This document shows, one piece after another, positions 4,068 to 50,701 of a stretch of 64,000 nt of DNA. Each line of letters begins with the position of its first letter. Within the stretch, counting starts at the first letter, position 1. The notes under the pieces were generated by a model. That model was given only the letters and a program-made list of their open reading frames with translations. It searched no databases and was not told the origin of the DNA. Both the position numbers and the translations under genes were made by a program. Source of the DNA: Fistulifera solaris (lineage: Eukaryota); contig AP026142.1 of the NCBI GenBank assembly GCA_030295235.1, forward strand, positions 744,001 to 808,000, read 5' to 3'.

Positions 4068-6095
4068 TTAGAAACCCCGATTGGCATCGCGTGCCGCCTG
4101 TCGTGATTGCTGTAGAAACTGTTCGACAGCTACATGATCTTTTATTCCTTTCGAAGCTTCTACACCCGAGCTCACATCGACACCGAAGGGACGAGTGCTT
4201 GCTACACAGTCAGCCACATTGTCAGGCGTCAAACCACCAGCAACCAATACAGGCAGTCCTTGATTTTGCAACTCCAATGCAAGCTGCCAATCAAATGTTT
4301 TCCCAGTTCCTCCTTGTTGTCCGGGTACAGCGGTATCTAACAGAATGGCCATGGGATCGTTCGTCAATGATTGCAAAAGTGTTTGAATGGGAGAATCGCT
4401 GTTGTCGTGGGTCTCGGAAGATGAGGGAATGTCAACGACGCGCAGCACAGGCACTCCATTGTACAAGTCACGATTAGCTGCCGCCATACCTTCCGATCCG
4501 TGCAATTGAATCACATCCAATCCTGCTTGTTCACACACACTCCGTATATATTCGGATGATTGGTTCTGAAAGACTCCCACCACCGCCGGACGCTGCGGTG
4601 TTGCTGTTTGTGCTAAAATACGGGCTTGTTGCGTCAAATGCAACAGCGGATTGCTGAACGTAGCAGTGGTAGCAGGAAACTCCAAACGCGATGACCGCTC
4701 GCCGAATTGACGCACTGTTTGTACAATTTCCTTCGCTTGTTCCATGCTTGTCACTTTCCGAGGACTCTTTTCCGCAAAGATAATTCCGATCAAATTGGCT
4801 CCACTTTGACACGCTTTAAGTGCATCGTGGGAGTTTGTAATTCCACAGACTTTGACAATTTGAGTACCAGCCGTGTATGCCGCAATCGAGCCGCTGCTTA
4901 CATTAGTTTGGGCCTCCCAATCTTCGGGATGGAGACACAAATTTTGAATTGCTGCTACAGGATCCGACGCCCTCATTAAGGATTCTCCAATCAAACACAT
5001 GCCGATACCGACTTGGCGATATCGATGCACATCCATCGCGTTGGACATACCCGACAAGGCACACAAGCAGACTTGTTGGTTGTATGGAGATCCGTGTTGA
5101 TACACAATCCCTTCTTTTTGCAAGAACGCGGCCATGCGTTCCGAAGTCTGCAAATCCATTTGAAATGTATGTAGATTGCGATTGTTGACACCAATCACGC
5201 GAGCACCTGCTTGTAGAGCGACTTTCAATTCGTCTGTCGTGTGAACTTCGACCAATGGCTCCATTTGAAAAGTATCGCGTGCATAGTGCATCAGACGTTG
5301 CAACAAGTGCAGAGGCAAGACGGCGACAATTAATAAGACCGTATCACCTCCTGCCGCGGCAGCTTGTGCAATCATGTATTCATTAATCACAAAGTCTTTG
5401 CGCAAAATAGCAGGTCGCTGTCGGTTGTCCTTGCCAATATTCTGAATATCGTTGGTAGCCAATCGAATGTCAGTCAAATCTTGCAACGACCCTTGAAACC
5501 AACGAGGTTCCGTCAATACACTTAATATATTAGCCCCCGCGTGTGCATATCGCATCCCCTGTTCGGCCGCACTCGTATTCTCGGGAGCCATGCGTCCCTT
5601 GGAAGGCGAGGCCCGTTTGAATTCGGCGGCTAACGCCATGGTGGGTGCTTGTTGTTGAATGACTTGTTGCAACGACAGCAAGGGTCCATGTGTCTGTGCA
5701 AACACTTTTGCAGCTTCTTCTAGATGCTGTAAGGAAGGACTGGTCGGCAATTGTTGATAATTGTTATAATCTAGACAGACAGTTGCCGTAATTTCCTGTA
5801 GTTTACTCAATATCTCGTCAGGAGCGACATACAAATGAGCGCCATCGGCGGCAGGATTGTCGGAATCGTCCAATAAATTCTGCAAGGCCTGCTTCAATTG
5901 TTCGGGTGTATATTGTGCAGATGTATCGACTGTTTCAATAAGGGTATTTGTTGTTATAAAGGTTCTGGAAGAAGACATTCGCGCACACGAAGACGGAGGA
6001 GAAGAAGAGACGACAAAAGCAGTAGTTGTCGCAATTCCTAGCATGCTACTCGCGAGCCACCACCATGAGTAGTACAAGGAAGATTTGCGTCGCAT
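4068..6095 (-). CDS. trpCF: Plastid-targeted bifunctional indole-3-glycerol-phosphate synthase / phosphoribosylanthranilate isomerase
   Basis: IGPS motifs AAEFKRASPSKG, LSVLTEPRWFQGS, LRKDF, IGVNNRNL, LIGESLM. PRAI motifs VKVCGIT, IQLHGSE, GGTGKTFDW, LVAGGLTPDNV, GVDVSSGVE. Presequence cleavage motif TTA-FVV. Confidence 0.95.
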   Translation of the reverse strand: MRRKSSLYYSWWWLASSMLGIATTTAFVVSSSPPSSCARMSSSRTFITTNTLIETVDTSAQYTPEQLKQALQNLLDDSDNPAADGAHLYVAPDEILSKLQEITATVCLDYNNYQQLPTSPSLQHLEEAAKVFAQTHGPLLSLQQVIQQQAPTMALAAEFKRASPSKGRMAPENTSAAEQGMRYAHAGANILSVLTEPRWFQGSLQDLTDIRLATNDIQNIGKDNRQRPAILRKDFVINEYMIAQAAAAGGDTVLLIVAVLPLHLLQRLMHYARDTFQMEPLVEVHTTDELKVALQAGARVIGVNNRNLHTFQMDLQTSERMAAFLQKEGIVYQHGSPYNQQVCLCALSGMSNAMDVHRYRQVGIGMCLIGESLMRASDPVAAIQNLCLHPEDWEAQTNVSSGSIAAYTAGTQIVKVCGITNSHDALKACQSGANLIGIIFAEKSPRKVTSMEQAKEIVQTVRQFGERSSRLEFPATTATFSNPLLHLTQQARILAQTATPQRPAVVGVFQNQSSEYIRSVCEQAGLDVIQLHGSEGMAAANRDLYNGVPVLRVVDIPSSSETHDNSDSPIQTLLQSLTNDPMAILLDTAVPGQQGGTGKTFDWQLALELQNQGLPVLVAGGLTPDNVADCVASTRPFGVDVSSGVEASKGIKDHVAVEQFLQQSRQAARDANRGF

Positions 6096-33984: not shown

Positions 33985-34658
33985 GACAAAATGCAAAATG
34001 TATTGGTGAAATATAACAAAAGGTGAACGAAAATGTTTGATTTAATCTGCTAGATGCGTTTACGACTGCATAGGCGTTTCGGATGTGGAAAGGAGAAATA
34101 TGTTGAGAGCGATTACTTGGCTGCTCGAATCGGACCGAATGAAGATGCATTTGTAACGAATCTTGCACAGGTCGAATCAACGTAAACGGGTGGTTGCCAT
34201 TTTGAGTGTTGTGGTTGTGATAGCGGGTCATCGGCTTGGTCATTATTTGCTCAGTCATCATTCAAAACATGCTTGTGTACATTGAGATCTATAGACAAAG
34301 ACTCCTGCGCGCTGAATTTATTCACAGTTGTCAGACCTCATTGAATTAAGATTCTTAGTTCTTAGAGACACTGCTTAGAATTTAGTCATCAGGTTGAGTT
34401 AGAGTTTAGAGTTCCCTATACCCTATACCTGGTACCGTACCAGGTATCAGGTATAGGTTCGATAAAGCAGGCAATCGACAGAACCCGGATAGCGTGCTCG
34501 CAAAAACTATGGGCAAACGGCGCTTTTAGACTGACTTCTAAATATTGACGGCATTTGAGCAGCATCATGCTAAAAGCAAGCATCATACCGTAGATTATTT
34601 GTGGGTCGTGCTGTTAAATCTCGAGAAGATTTTGGGAACACCGGCATCCATTGGGCCT

Positions 34659-36677
34659 CTATGAAGTCTGGGAACGATTGCTCGATCGATTACTTTCCTG
34701 TTGGTGTGGATGCCCTTCTGTACTTTCAGTCGACCATTGATATCGCTTGAGTGCTAGACCCTCGGAATCATCCATTGGCGTTCTTCTTCGAAAGCTACCG
34801 TGATTAGATGATGTTCCAATCGATACCTTGTTTGACAGCGTCTCTCGTGAGACTTCGTCGTCGTCACTCAGTTCGGATCCGTCTTTCATAGAATCATCTT
34901 GCGCAATCAACGACCCAAATCGAAATCTCACTTCCATTTTAGCTTGTATAGTTTCTTGTAAATGATTTGCGGCGCTTTCTTTCAATCTCGCTTTTTCATG
35001 TTGGGCGGCGCTTATTTTGGGTACGAAGATGAGCAAGATGATCGATAAACAGCACACGGACACAGCCATGCAAGAAACGACATAATGAACGAGAGGCAAC
35101 TCCGTTGTCAAGAACAACATTGGCACTGCCGTCAGAACCGCCTGCAGTAAACAAACCATGCTGAGGGCAATGTACTTAGACTCTGAAAACTCGGATTGAA
35201 TGTGCCGCGCCTCGTAGGCTTGCCAGTTCGCAATGATTACAGCACTCAGATTGATGGCAACCAAAATAAACCCAAAGGCTTTTGATTGAACTTCACACAC
35301 TCCATACGTGGATATGACGCGATTCCATTCATCGGTACCTGGGTGCGCTTTCCGCACGTACTGAACTGGATCCCAAATCGTCCAACAAGTCAGACAGAAG
35401 ATGTTTGCGCCAAGTAAGCCGAAGAGCGGTAGATAGAGATCTCTGGGAAGAATCTTCAATCGTGCATTCGGAAAAGGATTTCGAAAGATTTGGTTTATTC
35501 GCCATGTTTTCGAGAACAAGGCCGAGAACATGAGGGTAAAACCGATGGAAGCCAGCCACGGAACGCTTTGACATGCCCTGTCGGCCCGAGTCCCGTCAAA
35601 GTTCGGATCTGAATCATCCAGTGAAAGTGGAATGAGCGCACTGCCACAAACCAGCGCTCCGAGACAAATGAGTAGCAAAAACTGAGGCTGGGACGCAACC
35701 ACCACACGGACACCCGACATGTGACATGTCCATGCTGCGAATGAGACCGCAAGCACGGCAATCACGGTAAATAAAGAAATCCCGAGAAACCGCAAATTCC
35801 CTAAATAATTGCAATTGAGATTCGGCGGAGGCAATTCGATAGGTACTCGCACCATTTCCATAAATGCTGTGCCGTAAATGGAGTCTTCCGAAGGGGTAGG
35901 GGTCTTATACAGCAAGTTGACTGCTTGAACCCCCATTTGGTAGGGATCTTGCCCCACCAGACCATTAACATGCCCAGACGTCAGTAAATCAATTTGTACC
36001 GGTAATGTATCCGCAATCACGTACGTAATGTTCTTTCCGATTGTAGAAACAACGTATTCCCAACGGGTTGTATTGGGACGATACATGGGCCACCCGCCTG
36101 CTGCAATGATGGCACCTAAACCTGGCATTCTCGAAAATTGTTCAACTTGATCCAATGCTTTTTCGACGCTGTCTTGTGTATCACTCGGAGAGCTCTCAAT
36201 TTCTACCCATTCACTATCTTTCAAAAAGTTTCGCACTCCATCGTTCCGCTCCAGTATATTGGGTGAAATCGCACTGACGATTGCGTACTTTCCGCCTTTC
36301 GGTTTTAATTGAAGCAGTATTTTCCCTAACGTTTCCCCAAAAGCAAAATTATTGGTGCCTACGTATTGTAGACGACCCGAGAAAGGAGCATCGCTATCAA
36401 ATGTAATGACAGGAATGTTTTTGGCTAACGCTTCTTGTACAGCAATTTGCGTAATATTGTCGTCTAATGAACTGATAGCGATTCCGTCGACATTGTCATT
36501 GATTTTTTGTCGGATAATTTCAAGTTGATCGAGTGCGATTGGATGAATAGGTCCTTCAAAGTCGCAAATCACTCCGAGATCGTTAGCGCGAGCGGTGCAT
36601 CCTTCATGAACGATGGCGAAGAAGGGATTCGTAGTTTCTTGTTGCTTGGGTACTACGGCAAATCTCTTTGCCGACAT
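34659..36677 (-). CDS. Class C (GABA-B-like) GPCR with an N-terminal periplasmic sugar-binding (RbsB/LsrB-like) domain
   Basis: PBP domain FAVVPK..NPFF..VHEGC, VDGIAIS, IPVITFDSDAP, YVGTNNFAFG, GLVGQDPYQMG. 7TM_3 motifs VVVASQPQFLLLICLG, CQSVPWLASIGFTLMFSALFSKTWRINQIF, FSESKYI and LLIFVPK. The true start is probably further upstream (apparent frameshift at ~36678). Confidence 0.9.
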   Translation of the reverse strand: MSAKRFAVVPKQQETTNPFFAIVHEGCTARANDLGVICDFEGPIHPIALDQLEIIRQKINDNVDGIAISSLDDNITQIAVQEALAKNIPVITFDSDAPFSGRLQYVGTNNFAFGETLGKILLQLKPKGGKYAIVSAISPNILERNDGVRNFLKDSEWVEIESSPSDTQDSVEKALDQVEQFSRMPGLGAIIAAGGWPMYRPNTTRWEYVVSTIGKNITYVIADTLPVQIDLLTSGHVNGLVGQDPYQMGVQAVNLLYKTPTPSEDSIYGTAFMEMVRVPIELPPPNLNCNYLGNLRFLGISLFTVIAVLAVSFAAWTCHMSGVRVVVASQPQFLLLICLGALVCGSALIPLSLDDSDPNFDGTRADRACQSVPWLASIGFTLMFSALFSKTWRINQIFRNPFPNARLKILPRDLYLPLFGLLGANIFCLTCWTIWDPVQYVRKAHPGTDEWNRVISTYGVCEVQSKAFGFILVAINLSAVIIANWQAYEARHIQSEFSESKYIALSMVCLLQAVLTAVPMLFLTTELPLVHYVVSCMAVSVCCLSIILLIFVPKISAAQHEKARLKESAANHLQETIQAKMEVRFRFGSLIAQDDSMKDGSELSDDDEVSRETLSNKVSIGTSSNHGSFRRRTPMDDSEGLALKRYQWSTESTEGHPHQQESNRSSNRSQTS

Positions 36678-36927
36678 TTCTTATCCATCAAAAGTGAACT
36701 GTCGTTATTTTGCAAGCTGGAAGACTTCTTTCTTGCTTCAATAACACGAAAATGAAGAGCGAATGAGCCGCATCGACTGGCTGTTGCGAGTGTGGTGCTG
36801 GTGCTCTGCAACGTGTACCTCCTATCACACAGCGATTCTGTTCGTTGTCAGAAGAAAGGCTTTCTGGCTTCAAAGTTAATTTATTCGTCGTGGGTCGCGG
36901 GTCGCGTGTCGCGTGGCTCAGTTCTCC

Positions 36928-37009
36928 GGGAAGGACGTTAAAATTCTGCCTCCCAGTACAAGATTCTACGTAGCGTCTACGACGAGGCAGAATTTTAACG
37001 ACGTTCCCC
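36928..37009 (+). mobile_element. ~80-bp hairpin MITE, copy 1
   Basis: 17-bp inverted repeats CGTTAAAATTCTGCCTC (36936-36952) and GAGGCAGAATTTTAACG (36984-37000). Flanked by the direct repeat GTTCTCC(G) at 36921 and 37010. Confidence 0.75.
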
Positions 37010-38602
37010 GTTCTCCGAGAATGCTAAGAGAGCATGTCGCGCTCAGCATGTCGCACGAAGAAAATACTATACACCAAACAGTTGACGTTCGATATATGAA
37101 AATCAACTTATTCGAAATGAAAAAATTATCTACTGGTAAATTGTCATACTGTCAAACACATTTCCATTTTTCAGGGAGTTGTACCTGTTATGTGATTTTA
37201 ATTTCACGCTTTCACTTATAGCTAGCTCTCTACCTTGGCTAAAAAGGTTTCATGCTCGAAAGTCTTTAAGGCAAGGCGCGTTGTACAGCCACCAATAACA
37301 CGCAAGTGGAAAATAAAACAACAAGATGTTTGTGTGTGTAGTTAAAAGCATGTCACTTCGAGATCGACCTTTTATCAGAATCGCGAAAACTGTGATTGAC
37401 CCTAGAAGTGCTAGCTTCCGCTTGATAGGCATAATGTTTGACTATTCAGCGTATAACCTCCGCTGTCCAATTGTGTCAAAGCATACTTGTCCTTATAAGA
37501 ACAATCTGCGAGTTGTTGGAACTTACGACACATATCATTAGACAGCGGAGCACAAAAAAGAAGACATCCTACATTTGTGATGATTACTTTTCTTTTCTGT
37601 TCTTGCTATTGCTAGAGATGACATTAGCTGCATGTAGGGTGTAGGATGACGGATTGATATCGCGTGCGCATAAAACATGAATAGAGAGAGAAGCCTATCC
37701 CATCCATTGTCATTGAGATTCGCGCATACATGCACACCCCCAAGAGATGTTGTAGTGACTGGATACTGGATCGATCCGACTGGACTAGAAGCATGAGAGG
37801 TATGAGTGGAAAGATTGTGTGTGGTTCTATTCTGATCGATCTTCGCTCTTTCAAGGAGCGAGGAGCAGGCTGACAACTAAAATCTAAAATAGCGAACAGT
37901 CAACTACGCTACGGTAGAAAGTGTGACTCGACATGACCAGTGTAAAAGACTTATGACTCCGACATTTCCCCTTCAAAATTCTAACAAACCAGTCACGAAA
38001 CTCTTCTCTTTCTCCTGTCTGTATTCTGTGATTCTGTGTGACTTTGTGACATGTGCGTTGGAGACTTTAGCCTTTAGCCGGAATTTCGTGAATTGTTTCG
38101 TGATTGTCAAGAGGACGAGGAGCTAATAACAGTCTTTCCGTTACGTACTCTGGTATGGTGCGCGCTGCATGATGCATCTTGACACTTATAAAATGCAAGC
38201 AACATGAAACCCTTGCATTTTGCATTAGATCCCTACTGTTAGGATGAAGGATGAAGGTTCAGTAAGAAAGTCCATCGAACGCCAAAGTTCCGATACTTGT
38301 ACCAGTTACAACTTGCTCAGCAAAACCTTATAATGTCACTTGATACTTGCTGTTTGTGAGCGGGGTCTCACATGTCAATAGAATGGATGTACTCGTTATC
38401 TGATAGCTTGGGTGAGTGACAAGTTCATGGGAGTGTCCGATGCCTGGTGCCATGACCCATGACCTTCTATCTTTCCCTCCCAAACGCTTCAACCAACAAA
38501 TAAATGTTTCGTGCAAATTCCGCACTCATTTTTGAGGCAAGCAATCTATCATCCATCGTAGTCAGCCATTGATCGAACAAACAATAAAAAGAGAAAGATA
38601 CC

Positions 38603-41600
38603 ATGAAGTCACCTGATAGCGAACTGATTGTCTCCGAATTCGAACGAGAAAACATGCTGGAGAAATCAAGCACGCATGGCTCGGATGCGTCCCTTGCAGA
38701 AGGCATCGGACGTTACGAAGGACGCCTTGTTAATCGATCGAAAGTCATTCTTTACGTCACGCTGTGTCTCGCCGGTGTTTGTATTTCATTAGCTACATTC
38801 TTTTCATTAAAAACCAGGAAGAAGCGACCTTTGAAAGTGAGGTAAGCACTATCGCCCTCGACGGAGATCAGAAGAGTATCACCGTCGAAAGAGTCTAACA
38901 CTTCGTTTCTATCGGTTTCACAGTTTCGTAATCTTGCCAATGAAATCATTGATGTCGCCACGAGCAACACGGAAAACACAATAGGTCAAATTCGTAGCAT
39001 ATCGACGGCATACGCTTCCTACGCCGGCGATTCGCCGAGCCGAAGTTGGCCGAACATTACTTTGCCTCACTTCAAGCACCAAGTCTTTGAATCAATTCGT
39101 CTCACTGGAGCGGAATGGATTGCCTTTCTACCTAGAATTTCCAGAGAACAACAAGCTGGTTTTGAGGCATTCGCACAAGAAGAATATATTCGGCTTGGCA
39201 TGGCGAACACCAGTACTAGTTTGCCGCAAGAAATTCGCAGTACGAACGGCAACTCTCTTGAAAAGGACTATTTCGCACCGATTTGGCAAATAGCTCCTCT
39301 AAGTGCGAGTGCGGATGTTCTCCTCATTGATATGGACTCTTTTCCGTGGTTCAAGGAAGTGAAAGCCGACGTGTTACGTACTAACCACGCTATCATGTCG
39401 CGCGTTGTCGATATTGATCCAACCGTGGCAGCTGAAGATGACCATGATGGAGATTACCATCCGCATACTGTCATTTTGAATGGTATTCCACGTTTCGATG
39501 GTGATGTTTTGGTAGATGACTTTGAGAACGACCGATTCGGCTTTATCATGGCCGTGTTGCCTTGGGAAGTTTACTTCACTGAGGTGATACCCAGTGACAC
39601 CTTCGGCTTTCTCGTAGAAGTTGACGATCACTGTGGTAGCGTATTCACATACGTAATCAACGGCCACCATGCCCAAGTGCTGGGAGAAGGAAAGTTGCAT
39701 AACAGTAAGTATGATTACCTCCATGAATTCGCTGACTGGTCAATGTTAGCATCAGAGGGAAATCTTATTGAGGGGATCGACAATCCAGAACAGCTGACAT
39801 GCTATTACACCATTGATGTTTATCCTACCGATGAACTGAAGGCGGTATACACAAGCGGCGACCAAGTTGTGTTTGCAGTTGCCATCTTGGCGGTCTTCGT
39901 GTTTATTGTGGGGATCTTTTTTGTCTATGATGTTGCTGTGCAGAGACGGCAAGATAGAGTGACACGGGTCGCACGACAAACAGCAAAAATTGTGAATTCG
40001 CTTTTTCCCAAAAATGTACAGCGCCGGATCATGGAAGAGGCTCAACAAGCAGCAGAAGCTGATGAGGAAAAGCAGCATGGTTTCCGGTTTAGTGCAAAAG
40101 ATCGTCTTAAGAAAGCGTTGCTGAGTAACGGTACAGACGACGACCAAGACCGTCTAAAGAATGCTCCACCTATTGCTGATCTGTTCCCTTCCACAACAAT
40201 TATGGTACGTGAACACGCATAGCTACAGCCCGAACAGTCACGTGGGAGTATTTAACTCAACCTTGCTATCCCCCTTTTTAACATTGGATGAAATGGCAGT
40301 TTGGAGATTTGGTTGGTAAGTACACGACCGGATTGTATGGCATGCTTCATGGAAATAGTTTGCAGTCAACTCACCTTTCGGTGGCTTTTCTAACCATAGG
40401 ATTTACTGCGTGGAGCTCGATGCGAGAGCCGGCACAAGTATTTCAACTTTTGGAGACTATATACTCTGAATTCGACGAGATCGCTAAAAAACGACGCATC
40501 TTCAAAGTGGAAACAGTAGGAGATTGCTATGTAGCCGCCTGTGGCATTCCAGATCCTCGACGTGACCATGTTGTAGCCATGGCTCGCTTCGCGCGTGATT
40601 GCAGAAATCGAATGATGGCTCTCATGACAGATTTGGAAACAAAACTTGGACCCGATACAGGTGAACTTGGCCTTCGAATCGGTTTGCATAGCGGTCCCGT
40701 TACAGTGAGTGGCATATTTTTATTCAAAAAATTATTGTTGAGCAAAATTAACATTTGATTTTTACAACAGGGAGGTGTTTTACGTGGCGAAAAGGCGCGT
40801 TTTCAGCTGTTTGGAGACACCATGAATACGACGGCTCGTATTGAAACCACTGGCAAGAAGAACATGATCCACCTCTCTGAGGAGACGGCCATTCTCTTAC
40901 AAGCCTTCGGAAAAGGTCATTGGGTTAAATTGCGCGAAGATAAAGTTCAAGCCAAAGGCAAAGGCGAACTGACCACATACTGGCTCGTCAAAGATGATGG
41001 ACCACATTCAACAACATCCTCTGGAAACTCCCCAAGCGACGGGGATGACGATGCGGCTGCCAGTGACGAAGAAAATGATGGCGGCACAGCAATTTGCATT
41101 GAATCGACTTTTGCTGAGACAAGTGCATTGACAGAGAAAGTACAACGTCTGGTGAAGTGGAATGCCGAAGTTCTCGGCAAAATTCTAAAAGAAGTGATTC
41201 AAAGACGAAAAGCGCGTAAAAACCCTCCTGATTTTATTGCAGTTCGTCGCCTGGAAGAAGAAACTAAGCTCGGTAGGGTACTCGAAGAAGCTACAGACAT
41301 TTTAGCACTTCCAACTTTTGATGCAGAGGCCGCGGCTCGTCAGGAAGCGCTACCCCCTGTCATATTGGACGAAAAGGTCACCCAGCAGCTCGAAGCCTTC
41401 ATCCATGCTATCGCAATGATGTATCATGACAACACATTCCACAACTTTGAGCATGCTAGCCACGTTACAATGTCTGTTACAAAGCTATTTTCGCGCATTG
41501 TAGTCCCTGAGGTTTCCGGTGATGAGCGCACCCTACACGATCACACCTACGGCATCACATCGGATCCTTTGACCCAGTTTGCTGCAGCCTTTGCCGCCCT

Positions 41601-42321
41601 AATTCATGACGTCGATCATCAAGGAGTCACGAACGCGACACTGATTGAAGAGAATAGTCCCATCGCCGCAGTCTACAAGAACAAAAGCGTCGCTGAACAG
41701 AATTCGGTCGACATTGCCTGGTCACTTCTCATGGACGAGTCTTTCATTGACCTACGAAACTGCATTTACACAACCCCGGCAGGGTACCAACGTTTCCGAC
41801 AGCTGGTTGTGAATTCAGTCATGGCAACAGATATCATGGACAGGACTCTGAGTCAGGCTCGTAAGGATCGTTGGGCTAAGGCATTTGCTGAGAGCGAAGG
41901 TGACGATAACAATCCAATGGAAGATTATCAAAAACAAATCAACCGCAAAGCGACTATTGTGTTGGAGCACGTCATTCAAGCATCCGATGTCTCTCACACA
42001 ATGCAGCACTGGCATATTTACCGCAAGTGGAATGCTCGTTTGTTTGAGGAAATGAATGCAGCATATCGTCAAGGGCGTACGCAAAAGAACCCCGCGGATA
42101 CTTGGTATGAAGGCGAGATCGGCTTCTTCGATTTTTACATCATTCCTTTAGCAAAGAAACTGAAGGAGTGTGGTGTCTTTGGTGTTTCGAGCGACGAGTA
42201 TTTGAATTATGCTGAGAAGAATCGCAAGGAATGGGAAGCCAAGGGCAGAGAAGTTGTTGCAGAAATGGTAGCAAAGCTTCAATCTGCACCACCTTCGGTC
42301 GAATATCAGCTTTCAATGTGA
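38603..42321 (+). CDS. Receptor-type guanylyl cyclase-phosphodiesterase fusion (TM, CHASE-like ectodomain, TM, cyclase, class I PDE)
   Basis: Two TM helices bracket WPNITLPHF/FAPIWQIAP. Cyclase motifs TIMFGDLVGFTAWSS, FKVETVGDCYVA, LRIGLHSGPVT and RFQLFGDTMNTTARIE. PDE motifs FHNFEHASHV, IHDVDHQGVTN, VMATD and IQASDVSH. Introns ~38842-38923, 40205-40299, 40316-40399 and ~40706-40770. Confidence 0.93.
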
Positions 42322-42460: not shown

Positions 42461-42544
42461 CTGGAAACGGCGTTAAAATTCTGCCTCGTCGTGGACGCTA
42501 CGTAGAATCTTGTACTGGAGGCAGAAATTTAACGTCCTTTCCAG
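42461..42544 (-). mobile_element. ~80-bp hairpin MITE, copy 2 (inverted relative to copy 1)
   Basis: The reverse complement aligns with 36928-37009 with few differences. Ends are CTGGAAA...TTTCCAG. Confidence 0.75.
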
Positions 42545-50623: not shown

Positions 50624-50701
50624 GGGAAGGACGTTAAAATTCTGCCTCCCAGAACAAGATTCTACGTAGCGTCTACGACGAGGCAGAATTTTAACGCCGT
50701 T
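50624..50701 (+). mobile_element. ~80-bp hairpin MITE, copy 3
   Basis: GGGAAGGACGTTAAAATTCTGCCTCCCAGAACAAGATTCTACGTAGCGTCTACGACGAGGCAGAATTTTAACG, nearly identical to copy 1. Confidence 0.75.

Follow-up and report, generated by a model that had tools for sequence, protein, structure and literature searches.

A 64,000-nucleotide stretch of the genome of the diatom Fistulifera solaris (GenBank assembly GCA_030295235.1, contig AP026142.1, positions 744,001 to 808,000 of the forward strand; called the window below, with positions counted from its first letter) contains an open reading frame (ORF) for a class C G-protein-coupled receptor (GPCR) of the GABA-B-like kind, in which the ligand-binding head has the fold and the conserved positions of a bacterial CUT2-type sugar-binding protein. 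The evidence somewhat favours the reading that this head binds a monosaccharide and that a single bacterial entry supplied the heads of a large family of diatom receptors. In such a receptor the N-terminal domain would face outward, and a neutral pyranose sugar, xylose- or glucose-like, would be held between the two lobes of the domain and would close them. The movement of the lobes would then pass through a short, conserved, proline-rich stalk and the hairpin of the second extracellular loop (ECL2) to the seven-helix bundle, which in turn would activate a heterotrimeric G protein. The two-domain architecture, the fold, the place in the family, the bacterial affinity and the kept sugar-site positions are results of the analysis; the class of ligand, the topology, the coupling and the direction in which the domain was transferred are inferred from them.

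The translation contains the five motif stretches that an earlier note, made from the letters alone, had picked out: FAVVPK (residues 6–11), NPFF (17–20), VITFDSDAP (90–98), YVGTNN (105–110) and VGQDPYQMG (241–249). That note had read the protein as a GABA-B-like seven-transmembrane (7TM) module fused to a binding domain of the type used by ATP-binding cassette (ABC) transporters, and both halves were found above their Pfam cut-offs. Peripla_BP_4 (PF13407) matched residues 6–258 (E 5.9e-44, 151 bits against a cut-off of 35.1), with the last two strands of the ectodomain extending beyond the match to residue 276, and 7tm_3 (PF00003) matched residues 297–554 (E 1.1e-37, 130.5 bits against 33.5). 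The note had also held that the ectodomain is not the usual Venus flytrap, and had named a better score to ANF_receptor as an outcome that would tell against it. At E ≤ 1 neither ANF_receptor nor Peripla_BP_6 matched the 672-residue protein in Pfam, so this objection does not arise; where the definition of a class C GPCR expects a flytrap of the ANF_receptor/LIVBP type, the protein has Peripla_BP_4. The NCBIfam equivalogs for RhaS, AlsB, LsrB, the rhizopine binder, RbsB and XylF gave weak matches, all far under their cut-offs (for RbsB, NF007936, 22.3 bits against 337; for the E. coli-type XylF, TIGR02634, 20.4 bits against 389.55), and the ectodomain therefore belongs to none of these named subfamilies. 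The model for TorT, of the trimethylamine N-oxide (TMAO) system, also matched weakly.

An AlphaFold model of the ectodomain, built from an alignment of 69 sequences, gave two confident lobes, with a mean predicted local distance difference test score (pLDDT) of 94.5 and a predicted TM-score (pTM) of 0.89. When this model was compared with the PDB using Foldseek, the top match was the Thermotoga maritima glucose-binding protein in its liganded form (2h3h, TM-score (TMq) 0.85), followed by the glucose-galactose binder GanP (6gt9), 5hqj, the thermophilic glucose/xylose-binding protein 3c6q, and XylFII with the LytS sensor domain (5xss, 5xsj); for several of the sugar binders the TMq was 0.82–0.85. 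By sequence, the best solved chains were 2qvc, 2h3h and 3c6q (about 1e-25), then GanP (6gq0, 6e-22) and 5hqj, with E. coli ribose-binding protein at about 1e-4. Thus, the T. maritima glucose/xylose-binding protein (2h3h, 3c6q) and Geobacillus GanP are the best solved matches by both sequence and fold, although they are only 24–27% identical to the ectodomain and are transport proteins. In XylFII–LytS of Clostridium beijerinckii a CUT2 xylose-binding protein serves signalling, and XylFII resembles the ectodomain both in sequence (about 1e-15) and in fold (E 2.5e-19, TMq 0.82). However, XylFII and LytS are separate bacterial proteins with a histidine-kinase output, whereas the diatom binder is fused to a eukaryotic 7TM domain.

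Bacterial relatives of the ectodomain were sought among shorter proteins using residues 1–290, and 117 of 461 candidates proved to be hits. Of these, the best 60 were 304–316 residues long, apart from one fragment of 270 residues, and 42–46% identical over 80–91% of the domain. The closest stand-alone relatives were 314-residue binding proteins of Hyphomicrobiales, at the same level of identity over 87–91% of the ectodomain; among the best 60, those with a named source came from Devosia geojensis, Devosia sp., D. pacifica, Metarhizobium album and Rhizobium sp. With the D. geojensis protein as query against GTDB species genomes, a relative was encoded in 528 of 584 candidate stretches, and the best 80 loci were nearly all from Hyphomicrobiales (Devosia, Kaistia, Rhizobium, Bosea, Mesorhizobium, Chelatococcus and Bradyrhizobium), a few being from Rubellimicrobium or unclassified genomes. 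At one D. pacifica locus (L006) and one Bradyrhizobium locus (L051) the gene order was LacI-type regulator, xylulokinase, xylose isomerase, ABC ATPase, permease and binding protein. Here the xylulokinase XylB scored 554 bits against TIGR01312 (cut-off 380) and the xylose isomerase XylA 666 and 683 bits against TIGR02630 (cut-off 533), and the Devosia locus has in addition a GH43 xylosidase-type enzyme. A Kaistia locus (L018) differs in carrying GntR, a Zn-dehydrogenase and a molybdenum dehydrogenase. Neighbours were counted by tblastn over the best 80 loci, in flanks of up to 8 kb that were in some loci cut short by contig ends: XylA was present at 39, XylB at 35, LacI at 36, GH43 at 8, permease at 77 and ATPase at 74. 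The closest bacterial clade is thus often, but not always, tied to the use of xylose. The E. coli-type XylF model was failed by the Devosia relative (42.4 bits) as well as by the receptor, and so it is the operon context that provides the link to xylose.

The binding proteins of these xyl operons (for example those of D. geojensis, D. pacifica and Bradyrhizobium spp.) have the same conserved sugar-site positions as the receptor and the same cysteine pair, but they are free periplasmic proteins with their own signal peptides, encoded beside an ABC permease and ATPase, and they carry Arg at position 244 and have no N-x-S/T sequon at 216. As a class, CUT2 binding proteins are free in the periplasm with the permease and ATPase adjacent, whereas the receptor ectodomain is fused to a 7TM domain, and no ABC permease or ATPase was matched among the 17 other window ORFs of at least 200 residues that were scanned. 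Two further arrangements were seen among the bacterial relatives: a permease fused to the binding protein (BPD_transp_2 plus Peripla_BP_4; P0310) and tandem double binding proteins (P0247, P0272, P0294 and P0325).

Since the best solved matches are to glucose, xylose and galactose binders and LsrB is far weaker, the protein is most probably a receptor for monosaccharides, and a receptor for autoinducer-2 (AI-2) is unlikely. The earlier note had proposed sugars or bacterial quorum signals as the ligand, and of these two the sugars are favoured, by matches of about 1e-25 to glucose/xylose binders, whereas the AI-2 part is not supported. An ectodomain that binds AI-2 in the manner of LsrB, and so reports bacterial density, would suit an alga that lives among bacteria. 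LsrB and RbsB, the AI-2 and ribose binders, also share their Pfam family and fold with the ectodomain; the LsrB equivalog (NF011937) matched with E 7.8e-11 and the solved LsrB chains with 6.5e-8 to 1.6e-5. However, the LsrB match was 41.4 bits against a cut-off of 384 and confined to residues 2–126, RhaS and AlsB outscored it, and among solved structures the glucose/xylose binders were better by about 18 orders of magnitude. No LsrB was present among the Foldseek matches listed (ranks 1–50), and the nearest bacterial relatives lie beside xylA and xylB. Taken with these points, AI-2 as the ligand is very improbable.

The sugar site was compared in a 209-row alignment that included 125 fused and 66 bacterial domains, with positions taken from conserved columns, from two residues of the T. 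maritima glucose-binding protein (tmGBP) given in an extract of PMC9601137, and from residues of ribose-binding protein. Eleven residues (K11, F19, F20, D94, D96, R102, N110, N140, R144, D223 and Q243) were near-invariant over the fused and bacterial domains alike. We take these columns to include those that correspond to the sugar contacts of the E. coli ribose-binding protein. In the window copy the sugar-contact positions are K11, N17, F19, F20, D94, D96, R144, W196, Y199, D223 and Q243, most of them near-invariant. According to the extract of PMC9601137, K9 of tmGBP hydrogen-bonds O4 of the sugar and Y190 stacks on glucose. In the sequence alignment to the solved chain Y190 is paired with Y199, and K9, which falls just outside the alignment, is probably the equivalent of K11. 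Of the 31 positions examined, 29 have the same residue in the window copy as in the Devosia clade, and the two departures were at 199, where Phe (8/8 rows) is replaced by Tyr, and at 244, where Arg (8/8) is replaced by Asp. In most paralogues position 244 is Leu, Val or Met, and across the diatom family positions 17, 194–196, 199 and 244 are variable, a pattern that would fit paralogues tuned to different ligands.

This variability bears on the idea that the pocket has drifted, and that the ligand is a polyol, a sugar acid, an amino sugar, the end of an oligosaccharide or an algal metabolite rather than a monosaccharide. The identity to the bacterial relatives is just 42–46%, the arginine at 244 has been lost both here and in most paralogues, and the variable positions 17, 194–196 and 199 suggest diversification of the ligand; moreover, CUT2 proteins also bind rhizopine, and TorT lies in the same superfamily. 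However, the hydrogen-bonding and aromatic positions of sugar binders are near-invariant, and the window copy is among those nearest to the bacterial state. We therefore regard drift to another class of ligand as unlikely, though it merits more thought than the AI-2 receptor. By analogy with GABA-B2, it might also be supposed that the protein is a ligand-insensitive or modulatory subunit that pairs with another member of the family. Dimers are the working form of class C receptors, GABA itself is not bound by GABA-B2, and there are many paralogues in the family, including at least three further members in F. solaris. As the pocket positions are fully kept in the window copy, which argues for a working binding site, such a role would be quite surprising. 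A homodimer model of two copies of residues 1–290 scored 0.29 against a mark of 0.32, a value with no bearing either way.

Evidence for a bacterial affinity of the ectodomain, and hence for the horizontally acquired domain that the earlier note had suggested, came from phylogeny as well as from the 42–46% identity to the Hyphomicrobiales proteins. In an exhaustive HMMER search with the ectodomain against 1.84 billion representatives, 3618 proteins reached E ≤ 1e-3, of which 129 reached E ≤ 1e-30. The domain was cut from stored hits that covered the query from position 25 or earlier to position 240 or later (275 rows), and near-duplicates were thinned to 209 rows, 125 with a 7TM domain and 84 without. 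In a FastTree phylogeny of these rows, the 125 fused domains together with 15 non-7TM rows were split from 69 stand-alone rows with a support of 91. At least some of the 15 are cut gene calls, for example P0283, whose longer cluster mate P0362 has 7tm_3. All 15 were left out of an IQ-TREE quick search (LG+C20+F+G4) of 140 rows, made up of 90 fused domains and 50 labelled bacterial, with the tree rooted on a distant Pseudoalteromonas-type group. One clade of 93 rows, with an SH-aLRT of 99 and placed among bacterial proteins, held all 90 fused domains and three others (P0266, P0248 and P0253); its sister, at a weak support of 17, was a mixture of bacterial proteins with the Devosia clade among them. 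Each of the three extra proteins, which branch inside or next to the receptor heads, combines a signal peptide and the binding domain with a short C-terminal hydrophobic tail and has no 7TM domain. They look like membrane- or glycosylphosphatidylinositol (GPI)-anchored eukaryotic paralogues, and may be anchored sugar binders related to the form that preceded the fusion. The pattern fits a single ancient transfer from a bacterium to diatoms, followed by fusion and expansion.

The receptor belongs to an established family. A search of 5.8 billion proteins, in which 7997 candidates were scored, gave 187 hits at E ≤ 1e-3; of the best 120 listed, 117 had both PF13407 and PF00003 and three had PF00003 only, and all the homologues with a named source were from diatoms (Fistulifera solaris, Seminavis robusta, Cyclotella cryptica, Amphora coffeaeformis and Odontella aurita). 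An Atlas cluster of 79 members was wholly eukaryotic, with Bacillariophyta the commonest phylum, and contained 7tm_3 in 100% and Peripla_BP_4 in 94% of them. Both domains are already present in the public annotations of the homologues. Port et al. (2013; PMC3727952) describe three of five class C-like GPCRs of Phaeodactylum tricornutum as having N-termini that resemble the binding proteins of ABC sugar transporters. GPCR1A, GPCR1B and GPCR2 of this alga are 626–799 residues long (PMC3727952; PMC7452957), a length similar to that of the window protein; the likeness is one of description. This kind of protein is therefore already known, having been in print since 2013, and the novelty claimed for it in the earlier note was overstated. 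Nothing beyond Port et al. on the combination of Peripla_BP_4 with 7tm_3 was found in the literature searched, and the Seminavis and Pseudo-nitzschia genome papers deal with other GPCRs only. Fu et al. (2020; PMC7452957) found that expression of GPCR1A or GPCR4 shifts P. tricornutum to an oval, surface-colonising form; the part of that paper covered here gives no ligand, and the words 'sugar' and 'periplasmic' do not occur in it. What is new here is the affinity to xylose/glucose-type binders, the origin in a single clade, the conserved pocket, the anchored paralogues with no 7TM domain and the puzzle of the signal peptide described below.

A comparable exchange may have taken place in another eukaryotic lineage. 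In an Atlas cluster of 88 members, in which Evosea (Amoebozoa) is the commonest phylum, 7tm_3 is joined to a Bmp (PF02608) binding domain (feature score 0.84; a lead). As in the diatom receptors a class C 7TM domain carries an ABC-transporter-type binding domain, but the binding-protein family is a different one, which suggests that class C bundles have swapped binding-protein heads more than once.

In the C-terminal half, a full-length model (mean pLDDT 87.8, pTM 0.75) was confident over residues 1–590 and contained seven helices between residue 293 and about 555 (293–319, 331–351, 362–399, 411–435, 467–492, 499–523 and 528 onward), with pLDDT mostly above 90, and an ECL2 hairpin with strands at 439–444 and 456–462. 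Over 94 family sequences C369, C461, K390 and E499 were invariant and R393, P553 and K554 at least 90% conserved; Port et al. (2013; PMC3727952) name these residue features as determinants of class C and of GABA-B receptors. In the stalk P279 was invariant and L282 and P283 at least 90% conserved over the same sequences. The stalk was confidently placed in the model (pLDDT 82–92 per 10-residue block over residues 261–290), and there is no cysteine-rich domain. By sequence, the solved chains closest to the 7TM part were 9jr0 (3.9e-25), GABBR2 (about 8e-19), GPR156 (4e-8) and mGlu2 (9e-6), and the best Foldseek matches of the full-length model were full-length GABA-B receptors (E 6e-18). The metazoan GABA-B receptors (GABBR1/GABBR2; 6wiv, 7c7q, 9jr0), the closest solved 7TM domains at 3.9e-25 to 1e-13, likewise have a short stalk and no cysteine-rich domain, and they share with the diatom protein the Lys/Arg of TM3, the acidic residue of TM6 and the Pro-Lys of TM7. 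They differ in that their flytrap is of the ANF_receptor/LIVBP type and that they form a coiled-coil heterodimer, whereas the diatom receptor has Peripla_BP_4 and is known here from its sequence and model.

The N-terminus of the protein is harder to reconcile with an outward-facing head. A stop codon lies one codon upstream of the start Met. N-termini were compared in the 114 fused proteins in which the beginning of the domain is preserved. Of these, 108 begin with Met; of the 108, 55 have a hydrophobic, signal-peptide-like start before the domain, and 42 start no more than 14 residues ahead of it. The window gene falls in a subclade of 26 rows (FastTree support 88) in which 25 members have no signal peptide, including P0011, a transcript ORF that is labelled complete by its source, whereas the sister subclades have clear signal peptides. 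On the other hand, C27 and C38 are kept in all 26 rows and an N-x-S/T sequon at residue 216 is present in 19 of them; over the whole alignment, 74 of the 125 fused domains carry this sequon but only 1 of the 66 bacterial ones. The cysteine pair and the sequon suggest an oxidising, glycosylating compartment, and thus the ectodomain probably faces outward. The opposite view, that the protein is a cytosol-facing sensor of internal sugar, with a helix bundle that is inverted or is not a GPCR, would explain both the lack of hydrophobic N-termini in nearly all of the subclade and the stop codon so close to the start. Besides the cysteines and the eukaryote-specific sequon, it has against it the clear signal peptides of the sister subclades and the distribution of Lys/Arg residues, with 13 in the predicted cytoplasmic loops and 7 on the other side, and we consider it highly unlikely.

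A signal-peptide-like start (Met, basic residues and a hydrophobic run) could be supplied by a speculative upstream exon, read from the sequence and joined in frame through a 689-nucleotide GT..AG intron (37368..36680). The existence of this exon is doubtful, as the public gene model and a second copy of the gene (see below) start at the same Met, and P0011 also has no signal peptide. In three sequencing runs the proposed intron was covered like the gene, with no joint there, and a single contig of 396 nucleotides (36555 to 36950) spanned the proposed acceptor without a break; neither observation bears on splicing or expression. In two scans of metagenome contigs (with P0001 and with alignment A2) for orthologous loci in which conservation of the exon could be judged, no relative was found.

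Several points weigh against a monosaccharide receptor of single bacterial origin. XylA was absent within 8 kb from 41 of the 80 bacterial loci, the assignment of the bacterial relatives to xylose is by gene neighbourhood only, and at 42–46% identity the specificity of the receptor can differ from theirs. The sugar-site positions were derived otherwise than from a liganded structure, and they include one, 244, at which the Arg of the bacterial relatives is replaced by Asp, and others (17, 194–196 and 199) that vary among the paralogues. As the earlier note had also stated, no established ligand for any diatom GPCR or member of this family was found in the literature searched, including the portions of Port et al. 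(2013) and Fu et al. (2020) available. The lack of a signal peptide in the window ORF and nearly all of its subclade is unusual for a folded, outward-facing domain of 290 residues. Superposition of the whole chain on GABA-B was poor (TMq 0.39, root-mean-square deviation about 19 Å), and with this TM-score a GABA-B-like arrangement of the domains is not established. Finally, the root of the tree was assumed, and its bacterial sample consisted of the best-scoring hits only.

The features of the gene and its surroundings are collected in Table 1. The exact 672-residue sequence is recorded in each of NCBI, UniRef and EukProt. A second 672-residue protein of F. solaris (GAX21165.1) is 94% identical, gapless and intact, and starts at the same position, which speaks for a functional gene. 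In sequencing run X1, over 34200–37900, parts of the gene are present in two sequence versions that differ at many letters (for example at 35988–36272, where 23 of 285 letters differ), as would fit the existence of that second copy.

Table 1. Features of the receptor gene and its upstream region (positions in the window; residues of the 672-residue protein)
Feature	Position	Strand	Basis or remark
Whole ORF	34659..36677	minus	672 residues and a stop codon; one exon, both in the present reading and in the public gene model
Ectodomain, two-lobe CUT2-type sugar-binding fold, residues 6–276	35850..36662	minus	Pfam, AlphaFold, Foldseek
Stalk, Pro-rich, residues 277–292	35802..35849	minus	family alignment and model
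Class C seven-helix domain, residues 297–554	35016..35789	minus	Pfam 7tm_3, model
Long cytoplasmic helix continuing TM7, residues 555–592	34902..35015	minus	model helix 528–592
Disordered Ser/Asp-rich C-terminal tail, residues 593–672	34662..34901	minus	pLDDT <50
Speculative upstream exon	37369..37432	minus	read from sequence; 689-nt intron, GT..AG, in frame
Small palindromic dispersed repeat	36934..37002	.	upstream region, outside the gene; word depth and copies in the window

Bacterial contamination was considered as a source of the gene and ruled out, because it sits among ordinary eukaryotic-type genes (an IGPS–PRAI fusion, SPRY, LRR, endonuclease V, a VTT domain and a cyclase/phosphodiesterase) and the surrounding DNA is even in G+C (0.43–0.51). 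The next large ORFs upstream of the receptor start lie on the opposite strand (39200–42321, plus). In one of them (40822–42318) the last part of a guanylate/adenylate cyclase domain (Guanylate_cyc 1.2e-06) is joined to a cyclic-nucleotide phosphodiesterase (PDEase_I 1.3e-33), and the other (39200–40219) had no Pfam match; the receptor gene and the gene for the cyclic-nucleotide enzyme are thus arranged head to head, about 2.5 kb apart. Elsewhere in the window a single ORF (4071–6095, minus) encodes indole-3-glycerol-phosphate synthase fused to phosphoribosylanthranilate isomerase (IGPS 3.9e-65, PRAI 4.8e-45). The palindromic element, of about 70 bases, is present in three copies in the window (36934–37002, 42469–42536 and 50630–50698), each with two inverted arms (six arm matches against 0.01 expected). 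Its word depth in run X1 was about 12,700, compared with 12–63 in other bins. The element is a dispersed repeat of high copy number and may be of the miniature inverted-repeat kind.

For the family as a whole, a bolder and distinctly tentative proposal is that it constitutes the monosaccharide sense of diatoms, driving for example surface colonisation, and that the subclade with no signal peptide exports its 290-residue domain by an unconventional route. Surface colonisation is proposed because expression of GPCR1A switches the morphotype of P. tricornutum. If this were so, the receptors, their heads captured from bacteria that use xylose, would detect the free pentoses or hexoses that are released as bacteria or algae degrade the sugars of cell walls and exopolymers. 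The evidence narrows the search for a ligand of this family to neutral monosaccharides, of which xylose and glucose come foremost, and the soluble 290-residue domain is one that could be expressed and screened. The gene also appears to be a clear example of a eukaryotic G-protein receptor that has taken over a bacterial transport protein for sensing, a functional parallel, of independent origin, to the sweet taste receptors of animals. If confirmed, it would link the dissolved sugars around algal cells to the behaviour of diatoms.

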